The position numbers were made by a program, and so were the translations under genes. From positions 160,001-224,000 of the forward strand of contig CAWJIE010000004.1 of NCBI GenBank assembly GCA_963842885.1: a stretch of DNA of 64,000 nucleotides. The letters are read 5' to 3'. Below the pieces are notes generated by a model, which was not told the DNA's origin, ran no database searches, and saw only the letters and a program-made list of their open reading frames with translations. The first letter of the stretch is position 1. Every line of letters starts with the position of its first letter. This DNA is from an uncultured Nitrososphaerota archaeon. Its GTDB lineage: Archaea; Thermoproteota; Nitrososphaeria; Conexivisphaerales; DTJL01. Shown here piece by piece: positions 22,468 to 35,461 of this stretch.

Positions 22468-22565
22468 GGGCCCGTAGCTCAGCCAGGTAGAGCGCCGGGC
22501 TTTTATGGCCGACCGCGGTCAAAGCGACCCGGGTGTCTCGGGTCCGATTCCCGACGGGCCCGCCA
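22468..22565 (+). tRNA. tRNA-Lys(UUU) with canonical 37/38 intron (22506-22526, 21 nt); CCA encoded
   Basis: Cloverleaf GGGCCCG...CGGGCCCGCCA; BHB helix CTTT/AAAG with bulges TAT and CGA. Confidence 0.95.
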
Positions 22566-23689: not shown

Positions 23690-23787
23690 GCCCAAGTCGT
23701 ATAGCCCGGCCTAGTATGTCCGCCTGTCACGCGGACGACGCGAGTTGGTCCAAGACCACGCGAATTCAAATCTCGCCTTGGGCGCCA
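23690..23787 (+). tRNA. tRNA-Asp(GUC) with a non-canonical T-arm intron at 53/54 (23745-23764, 20 nt); CCA encoded
   Basis: Acceptor GCCCAAG/CTTGGGC, anticodon arm TCCGC-CTGTCAC-GCGGA; strict hBHBh': GA-CGCG-AGT-TGGTC...GACCA-CGCG-AAT-TC. Confidence 0.93.
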
Positions 23788-35238: not shown

Positions 35239-35246
35239 TTTTTATC
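35239..35246 (+). promoter_or_regulatory. Probable TATA box of tRNA-Tyr (predicted TSS about 35270)
   Basis: TTTTTATC centred about 27 nt upstream of G35270. Confidence 0.55.
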
Positions 35247-35279
35247 GGGAGCTCGTGGAGCTTCAAACCGGTCCCGCGT

Positions 35280-35461
35280 CCCGCGGTAAGAACCTCCCTT
35301 CAGGGGGCTCCCGCAGGCTCAGCCTGGTAGAGCTTCCGACATGAGCGGTTGCGACCGTTCGTGGGAGATGCTGTAGTGGTTGGCTGTGGCTGACCCGTCC
35401 AGCCTGCCAGGCCTACACAGAAACCGGAGTGTCGCAGGCTCAAATCCTGCCCGCGGGACCA
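35280..35461 (+). tRNA. tRNA-Tyr(GUA) with three introns: 9/10 (35289-35316), 30/31 (35339-35369), 37/38 (35377-35422); CCA encoded
   Basis: Spliced product CCCGCGGTA|GCTCAGCCTGGTAGAGCTTCCG|GCT-GTA-G|ACCGGAGTGTCGCAGGCTCAAATCCTGCCCGCGGGACCA with the C1-G72/A73 Tyr identity; each insert has a 4-bp helix flanked by 3-nt bulges. Confidence 0.92.

Follow-up and report, generated by a model that had tools for sequence, protein, structure and literature searches.

How can an intron be spliced from a transfer RNA (tRNA) precursor when it lies so close to the acceptor stem that its splicing motif and the mature fold exclude each other? This question is raised by a tRNA-Tyr(GTA) gene at 35280-35461 of a 64,000-nucleotide (nt) stretch of DNA from an uncultured Nitrososphaerota archaeon (assembly GCA_963842885.1, contig CAWJIE010000004.1, positions 160,001 to 224,000). 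This whole stretch is called the window below, and positions refer to it unless another contig is named. The gene is broken by three introns, at tRNA positions 9/10, 30/31, and 37/38, and is preceded by a 9-nt leader sequence that repeats its own 5' acceptor strand. We conclude that this leader is probably a functional stand-in for that strand, which would pair with the 3' acceptor strand and leave the first exon free for the bulge-helix-bulge (BHB) splicing motif of the 9/10 intron. The features of the locus are as follows.

35239-35246, plus strand: TATA-like box TTTTTATC, promoter of the tRNA-Tyr gene
35270-35278, plus strand: putative stand-in (surrogate acceptor) strand GGTCCCGCG in the leader, complementary to tRNA positions 67-75; predicted transcript start
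35279, plus strand: single T (position -1) separating the stand-in strand from C1
35280-35288, plus strand: exon 1, C1-A9, CCCGCGGTA, mature sequence from the intron-less orthologues L010-L029; G4-G7 provide the BHB central helix with its 5' strand, and the 5' bulge begins with U8 and A9
35289-35316, plus strand: intron 1, position 9/10, 28 nt, HBh' type; inner hairpin h', then CCGC (35311-35314), then 3'-bulge AG
35317-35338, plus strand: exon 2, G10-G30, the D arm and the 5' side of the anticodon stem
35339-35369, plus strand: intron 2, position 30/31, 31 nt, from comparison with intron-less orthologues
35370-35376, plus strand: exon 3, G31-G37, with the anticodon GTA within it
35377-35422, plus strand: intron 3, canonical position 37/38, 46 nt, present in every tRNA-Tyr orthologue seen
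35423-35461, plus strand: exon 4, A38 to the encoded CCA; 3' acceptor strand CCGCGGG at 35451-35457, A73 at 35458, CCA at 35459-35461
35452-35460, plus strand: sequence to which the leader is complementary, CGCGGGACC, positions 67-75 (six bases of the acceptor strand plus A73, C74, and C75)

Neither ARAGORN nor Rfam at its gathering score reported a tRNA-Tyr gene at 35280-35461. The exons are collinear with the intron-poor tRNA-Tyr genes L010-L029 of relatives, and the boundaries of intron 2, read by eye, agree with the BHB rule. When joined, the four exons give a 77-nt tRNA with an anticodon loop of CTGTAGA and an encoded CCA. The first pair is C1 (35280)-G72 (35457) and is accompanied by A73 (35458), as in all tRNA-Tyr orthologues compared. 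A C1-G72 first pair with A73 is the archaeal and eukaryal identity for tyrosine. Judged by its sequence, the locus is an archaeal tRNA-Tyr(GUA), which gives a GUA cloverleaf after intron removal and is orthologous to uninterrupted genes. BLAST of the locus against its own genome, an assembly that is 87% complete, returned no second tRNA-Tyr gene, only the locus itself and the T arm of tRNA-Phe. A "tRNA-Tyr(gta)" with a 16-nt intron predicted by ARAGORN (G000 C4 c[381628,381717]) was rejected, as it is actually a tRNA-His(GTG) with G-1 and C73. Because this is the single tRNA-Tyr gene found in the assembly, it should be functional.

The leader GGTCCCGCG and the 3' end CGCGGGACC are exact reverse complements over 9 nt, and the sequence TCCCGCG stands in tandem at 35272-35278 and 35279-35285, the second copy beginning at the spacer and running into the mature 5' end. 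Both had been claimed in an earlier note on this DNA, and the letters bear them out. The leader 9-mer occurs in only these two places in the window, where 1.17 occurrences were expected anywhere on both strands; since such a 9-mer is expected about once per 64 kb, what is rare is its position and not the word. We scored leader complements as the Watson-Crick match between the 30 nt before position 1 and the 3' strand plus 4 nt. The longest matches were 2-5 nt for the other 41 ARAGORN tRNA predictions of the genome and 2-6 nt for control windows, compared to 9 nt for tRNA-Tyr. With U-1:A73 and G-2:C74 added, the in-register acceptor helix also reaches 9 bp, and both alternative helices are equally long in the window's genome. 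Two other origins of the repeat were considered and rejected. It is not an integration (attachment, or att) repeat, as the copies lie 0-9 nt apart with no element between them, and the leader is not a real exon 1, as the base 3' of the leader copy is not the conserved U8 and the spacers are variable.

Our BHB definition was taken from a bioRxiv preprint (10.64898/2026.10.13.758758). In the available part of that preprint, the HBh' motif comprises a 4-bp central helix, in which the four exon bases preceding the 5' bulge face four bases of the intron, two bulges of 3 nt each, and an inner helix within the intron. At the 9/10 boundary, G4-G7 (35283-35286) face intron CCGC (35311-35314) and form the pairs G7:C, G6:C, C5:G, and G4:C. 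The bulges are UA/A and AG/G10, the latter being AA/G in relatives, and the register is invariant in all 21 tRNA-Tyr genes found to carry this intron. All 4 central pairs are present in 20 of the 21 (one gene has a G·A), and positions 2-5 of the inner helix, which is intron sequence, each show 3-6 different standard pair types across the set. The complete central helix in 20 genes, together with compensatory change in the inner helix, indicates a real, structured BHB intron. No outer helix was found at the 9/10 boundary (scan h = 0); C3, C2, and C1 are unable to pair with C11, U12, and C13. The strict hBHBh' class was therefore rejected, and the motif was placed in the relaxed HBh' class, of which the 9/10 intron is an ordinary member with predicted cut sites.

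It had been noted earlier that the central helix needs G4-G7 paired with intron CCGC and is incompatible with the acceptor stem, and this pairing and its register were confirmed. On the predicted pairing, the 9/10 BHB is possible only if G4-G7 leave the 3' acceptor strand and pair with the intron. We also considered whether the leader builds an outer BHB helix, or whether its duplex lies coaxial with the central helix; the sequence forbids both.

BLAST of the locus against 40 relatives located tRNA-Tyr in 30 of 41 genomes, including the window's own. All 9 genomes of the window's family, which represent four genera, have the 9/10 and 30/31 introns and carry GGTCCCGC(G) right before C1, with a spacer of T, A, or none. 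In other families, the canonical intron is the only one in the tRNA-Tyr genes, and the leaders are of unrelated sequence. We then scanned 185,579 species genomes with a pattern consisting of exon 1, a gap of 12-42 nt, and a D arm. The leader was not part of this pattern, so the genes were not selected by the feature under test. The scan gave 37 loci. Bacterial titles were borne by 18; the 11 of these that were parsed are other tRNA genes with leader complements of 3-6 nt, and none of the 18 shows a tRNA-Tyr 3' end. The remaining 19 loci are archaeal, with titles of Bathyarchaeota/Bathyarchaeia, Nitrososphaeria/Nitrososphaerota, Conexivisphaerales, Geothermarchaeales, Thaumarchaeota, and Nitrosopumilales. 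Seven of the 19 (L031, L038, L042, L044, L046, L048, and L053) are identical over the compared stretch to L004, L009, L005, L002, L003, L006, and L008 and were counted once. All 12 new archaeal loci have (G)GTCCCGCG(G), then a 2-3 nt spacer, then C1, and most carry the complete 10-mer GGTCCCGCGG, the complement of positions 66-75.

Taken together, a leader complement of 7-10 nt by Watson-Crick pairing (8-10 nt with G·U) is present in every one of the 21 distinct tRNA-Tyr genes that contain the 9/10 intron, whereas all 18 scored tRNA-Tyr genes without it show 2-5 nt only. The scoring left out L012 and L023, which are cut by contig ends, and L030, which is another tRNA; seven long-intron loci were read by eye. 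Leader complementarity therefore co-occurs with the intron in relatives, as the earlier note had proposed to check (21 of 21 with the intron and 0 of 18 without). When the 21 genes were aligned at the leader, the core G-TCCCGC was identical in 20-21 of them, and the 23-nt stretch between TATA box and leader in 6-15. The lone core substitution, C to T in L066, retains a G·U pair. The spacers between leader and C1 vary in relatives from 0 to 3 nt (none, T, A, AT, AA, AAA, AAT, TT, and AG).

Two observations on the tRNA-Tyr genes of relatives were made in passing. Seven Bathyarchaeia-titled genes (L035, L037, L047, L057, L062, L064, and L067) have one or two T-arm insertions on top of the 9/10, 30/31, and 37/38 introns and thus four or five introns. 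Genome G006 has a second match to the tRNA-Tyr body (contig C13:5094-5242) beside the copy on contig C1, which could be a second gene copy or a contaminating contig.

We scanned the genome for T arms with matching acceptor strands. This revealed tandem acceptor copies in more genes, four of which were resolved by use of orthologues. All four lie outside the window.

G000 C4 318335-318520, minus strand: tRNA-Thr(GGT), intron 8/9; leader (GA)GCCCCGG, then a variable 3-9 nt spacer
G000 C5 44055-44245, minus strand: tRNA-Asn(GTT), intron 8/9; leader GCGCTGCCG or GCGCCGTCG, 7 genomes
G000 C4 360425-360610, minus strand: tRNA-Arg(CCT), intron 8/9; leader TGCCGGGA, 4 genomes
G000 C5 111800-112000, minus strand: tRNA-Gln(CTG), intron 10/11; leader GGTAGCCC(GG), 8 genomes

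The Thr leader and intron were found in 8 family genomes and in one distant Bathyarchaeota-titled genome. Rfam gave Thr-GGT and Asn-GTT as partial matches (model 9-63), Arg-CCT below the gathering score (26.9 bits), and Gln-CTG not at all, and ARAGORN misplaced the start of Arg-CCT and missed the other three. An intron at 9/10 was rejected for Thr-GGT, where it gives one base too many; L075 and L152, with 4 of 4 central pairs, fix it at 8/9. For Asn, several exon models were tried, and the mature 5' end GCCGCCGUA-GCUC with an intron at 8/9 was fixed by intron-less orthologues; of the four pairs in its central helix, three are formed in the window's genus and all four in L158-L160. The central helices of the four tRNAs draw on acceptor bases (3-6, 4-7, or 5-8), and each leader complement extends as far as the discriminator. 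The multi-intron tRNAs of the genome with D-loop or anticodon-region introns have no leader complement.

For the five tRNAs together, a leader complement was present in 49 of 49 intron-bearing genes examined, and an acceptor-strand leader copy in 0 of 35 intron-less orthologues scored or inspected. Two of the intron-less Asn genes, L163 and L164, have a 6-nt complement that is not an acceptor-strand copy. Loci L116-L122, L165-L168, and L069 were not machine-parsed, and their leaders were read directly; L111 (a partial match) and L119 (at a contig start) were left out. As far as sequence goes, the same rule holds for every resolvable tRNA whose 8/9, 9/10, or 10/11 intron borrows acceptor-strand bases, and the finding extends to at least five tRNAs and to record titles from two archaeal classes. 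A separate partial tRNA match, L151 (G041:C1:387154-387211), runs into a stretch of N, and its 3' end is unreadable.

Gain and loss of the two features are coupled. The Arg-CCT intron and leader occur only in the window's genus (4 genes), and neither is present in 6 orthologues inspected by eye, which come from three further genera within the family and from three genomes outside it. For Gln-CTG, 8 genes of the family have both, and 2 genes from the next family have neither. For Asn-GTT, 7 relatives have both, and L157, which belongs to the window's genus, has neither. Compared to L153, L157 shows precise loss of the 8/9 intron, and 13 bases with the leader copy are gone while the rest of the promoter region is alike; in the window's genome these 13 bases lie between two GAGC repeats. 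From this comparison, L157 is a recent coupled loss of intron and leader copy. The intron-less Gln-CTG genes of the neighboring family (L109 and L110) have GGT right before A1, in register with A73, C74, and C75, so that the leader looks like a tandem duplicate of GGT plus the acceptor strand. This hints that the leader copy originated by duplication of the 5' end of the gene.

Compensatory changes were found in two tRNAs. The Gln leader of L108 has GAT opposite 3' ATC, where the others have GGT opposite ACC, and the Asn leader base that faces position 68 is T in L158 and L160, where the 3' strand has A68, and C in the window's genus, where it has G68. A G·U pair is kept in three further cases of C-to-T change in a leader, namely in L066 (Tyr), in L070 (Thr), and in tRNA-Asn within the window's genus.

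The leader also has a fixed place relative to the promoter. An A/T box lies at a constant distance from the leader in 21 of 21 intron-bearing tRNA-Tyr genes. In the window, the box center precedes C1 by 37 nt and the leader's first G, 35270, by 27 nt. Among ordinary tRNA genes with a clear A/T box in this genome (n = 28), the median distance from box center to position 1 is 30.5 nt; this survey was made without C2:254272, C4:15278, C4:230458, C5:461688, and C8:36019, which have poor or dubious acceptor pairing, and without C4:360437, whose start was misplaced by ARAGORN. For Thr, Asn, and Arg-CCT, the box centers are 34-37 nt from position 1 and 24-25 nt from the leader; no convincing A/T box was found upstream of Gln-CTG. 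The fixed box distance means that the leader complement begins about where transcription is expected to start. The box that had been proposed at 35239-35246 is present, and its spacing is consistent with the start proposed with it, at about 35270.

We folded the precursor with ViennaRNA as unconstrained ensembles at 37 C; the model is weak on 3-nt bulges and protein binding, and the figures are rough. Without the leader, the acceptor stem had a probability of 0.997 and the BHB central helix 0.000. With the leader, the probabilities were 0.93 for the duplex of leader and 3' end, 0.07 for the acceptor stem, and 0.20 for the central helix. In constrained folds without the leader, the structure with the central helix forced was 10.2 kcal/mol worse than that with the acceptor stem forced (7.5 at 60 C). 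With the leader, the helix-forced structure was instead 0.8 kcal/mol better (0.4 at 60 C) and adopted the leader duplex unprompted. The direction and size of the effect of the leader on folding are clear within the model. The proposal that the leader duplex displaces the acceptor helix and frees GCGG for the BHB agrees with these predicted folds.

The proposed course of events is as follows. Transcription would start at the first G of the leader, which would then take the 3' acceptor strand. The top of the tRNA would stay closed and the body tRNA-like, and exon 1 would be free to form the BHB hairpin within the connector between positions 7 and 10. After the cut by EndA, exon 1 would have lost its pairing partner, and the leader duplex alone would tether the 19-nt 5' piece (the leader plus the 9-nt exon 1) to the body; this tether step is our addition to the model of the earlier note. 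Once the exons are ligated, the true strand would displace the leader, to which it is identical over 6-7 nt, by strand exchange (branch migration), and RNase P would then remove the leader. In the genes examined, the leader always pairs with position 73 and one or two bases beyond it, in some genes with trailer bases. It may be speculated that 3' trimming, by removing two of these pairs, could tip the balance. The genome has an archaeal RNase P RNA (189.9 bits) and two separate reading frames with EndA domains (PF01974 matches at 95.9 and 64.5 bits), which, from the review literature, we infer to form an alpha2beta2 enzyme of broad specificity. These frames lie at C5:386565 and C4:49099.

Other explanations of the leader were weighed against a stand-in strand. 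It is unlikely that its pairing was selected to block or order end processing (by RNase P, tRNase Z, or CCA addition) or to shield the ends from exonucleases. Such a role would suit the coverage of the discriminator plus 1-2 more bases, including bases of the trailer that are not mature (ATC in Gln L108 and TC in Thr), and the predicted persistence of the duplex after splicing. However, tRNAs of this genome with several introns in the D loop or anticodon region lack the complement, so the feature tracks intron position and not slow maturation as such, and the BHB helix has a probability of 0.000 without the leader. We consider it rather improbable that the leader copy is a functionless, neutral relic of a tandem 5'-end duplication, perhaps of one that gave rise to the intron. 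As expected of a relic, the leader repeats exon 1 directly, and intron-less Gln relatives already carry the in-register GGT before A1. Yet it is kept in 20-21 of 21 genes across titles of two archaeal classes while the flanks have diverged, it was lost jointly with the intron inside one genus, its substitutions preserve pairing, and the spacers vary freely whereas the copy does not.

There is little likelihood that the leader acts locally, by pairing with exon 1 (CCGCGG) or with intron CCGC and so regulating or competing with the BHB. The letters would permit this in tRNA-Tyr, where CCGCG (35274-35278) can pair with CGCGG (35282-35286) and the leader also contains CCGC and GCG. The Asn acceptor strand is not self-complementary, though, and the Gln leader copy has no CCGG, so those copies cannot pair with exon 1; Thr and Arg have a 4-nt CCGG core that allows short pairing only. 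In addition, the complement reaches positions 73-75, which are present only at the 3' end, and covaries with them, and the ensemble gives the 3'-end duplex a probability of 0.93. A promoter-proximal or initiator element of the tRNA promoter would likewise sit at the predicted start and at a fixed distance from the TATA box, but it is very improbable here, as the leader differs in each of the five tRNAs, matching the acceptor stem of its own gene, and nothing similar is found in the ordinary tRNA genes of the genome. The chance that the tandem TCCCGCG is an assembly or sequencing artefact is negligible. It is a short tandem repeat, and nothing further speaks for an artefact; the repeat is present in 21 separately assembled genomes, which contradicts the possibility, raised in the earlier note, that assembly had produced it.

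Several points weigh against the leader as a stand-in strand. The BHB helix reached a probability of only 0.20 with the leader, the minimum free energy fold with the leader is not the BHB fold, and the energy margin for the BHB conformer is only 0.8 kcal/mol. After removal of intron 1 or of all introns, the leader duplex remained at 0.99 at 37 C and 0.74-0.80 at 70 C. With the duplex predicted to persist after splicing, the model does not explain release of the leader before RNase P acts; the predicted duplex would hinder RNase P cleavage, and the leader looks costly at this step. CCGCGG is palindromic, and the tRNA-Tyr leader could pair with exon 1 instead. The transcript start at the first G of the leader is predicted from TATA spacing only. 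Most pairs between leader and 3' end are invariant, so that real covariation amounts to two events, and Asn L159 has one C·A mismatch in the leader duplex. Because the genomes are kin, the 84 observations are not independent, and independent gains and losses perhaps number 5-8, not 49. Repeated duplication or gene conversion, by keeping the leader identical to exon 1, would give a similar picture. One locus, L149 (G041:C1:1724275-1724330), is a His-like partial tRNA match (29.7 bits) with one A·G mismatch in its 5' acceptor strand and about 26 nt inserted ahead of the D arm; neither a BHB nor a leader copy was found in it, and its exon structure is not resolvable. It may be a pseudogene or a structure that resists reading. 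Lastly, with an 87%-complete assembly and several isoacceptors not found, exceptions could exist.

A broader form of the stand-in reading is conceivable, although we would not put much reliance on it. Within Thermoproteota, a placeholder strand could be obligatory, in that BHBs borrowing 5' acceptor bases need a leader copy, and the precursor could be a two-state switch that places splicing before trimming. In the first state, the leader would lie on the 3' end with the BHB exposed and the 5' exon tethered; in the second, the native acceptor stem would be formed and the leader would be single-stranded for RNase P. Loss of the two trailer pairs at 74-75 may trigger the switch. A tandem duplication of the first 8-11 bases of the gene would have come first and licensed intron gain near the acceptor stem. 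If true, this duplication-first route would explain why acceptor-adjacent introns are rare elsewhere.

The stand-in strand would explain how EndA gains access to introns beside the acceptor stem, where the 5' exon is also too short to stay bound unaided. It would add a cis-acting RNA device to the expression of interrupted tRNA genes, namely a disposable copy of one strand of a mature helix. A tandem acceptor-strand copy behind a TATA box could serve gene finders as a signature that flags missed tRNAs. The coupled loss seen within one genus offers a testable route for intron gain and loss, and the system is small, consisting of a 192-nt RNA and a two-subunit enzyme.

The window contains other RNA genes. 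An archaeal signal recognition particle RNA lies within it, and the whole-genome ARAGORN run gave three further long tRNA genes.

2530-2643: tRNA-Pro-CGG, 116 nt
22468-22565: tRNA-Lys-TTT, 98 nt
23690-23787: tRNA-Asp-GTC, 98 nt

The anticodon of the tRNA at 22468-22565 was undetermined when ARAGORN was run on the window only. The leaders of the three genes match their 3' ends over 2-4 nt only and thus have no complement.

The intron itself belongs to a known group. Intron 1 of the tRNA-Tyr gene fits the non-canonical introns with relaxed HBh' motifs (the classes of Marck and Grosjean 2003). In their available portions, the published descriptions of HBh' introns treat motif and position and mention no leader element that frees acceptor bases. 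Leader-trailer pairing is described, in the accessible parts of the papers concerned, only for split and permuted tRNAs (PMC4090602, PMC3218864, PMC4033280, PMC3293823, PMC3728597, and bioRxiv 10.64898/2026.10.13.758758). A full-text literature search, in which sources were available in part, returned no description of an acceptor-strand leader copy, and a mention in older papers or supplements is possible.

Among known systems, the permuted tRNA-Tyr and tRNA-iMet genes of Thermofilum pendens have, in the available text of Chan et al. 2011 (PMC3218864), an unusually long distance from promoter to tRNA. As in those genes, tRNA-derived sequence lies here between promoter and 5' end, and tRNA-Tyr is again affected. 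In Thermofilum pendens, as far as that text goes, the upstream piece is the genuine 3' half and is joined by way of a circular intermediate, whereas the tRNA-Tyr gene of the window has a redundant 5'-strand copy there, which would be discarded. Split tRNA genes, as in Nanoarchaeum equitans and Caldivirga maquilingensis, have halves with complementary leader and trailer (PMC4090602 and PMC4033280, in part). According to those portions, an extra transcribed segment pairs, holds the exon pieces together, and lets a (relaxed) BHB form for EndA, which is also what the tRNA-Tyr leader would do. Split tRNAs, in the same portions, come from two transcripts whose leader-trailer pairing adjoins the BHB, and EndA removes both extensions. 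In contrast, the tRNA-Tyr locus would give one transcript with the leader on the mature 3' acceptor strand, far from the BHB, and removal would presumably be by RNase P. The locus was rejected as a split or permuted gene, as a single TATA box is followed within 182 nt, on one strand, by all of its exons in collinear order, and the leader adjoins no BHB.

In ribosomal RNA processing stems with BHB motifs, and in ribosomal RNA and precursor tRNA leaders that guide folding, a transient flank helix presents a processing site and the flank is later removed. Such helices pair leader with trailer, whereas the tRNA-Tyr leader would replace one strand of a mature helix that forms only after strand exchange. 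Within the known BHB-dependent interrupted tRNA genes, the class of the 9/10 intron is familiar, and the leader copy appears to be what is new.

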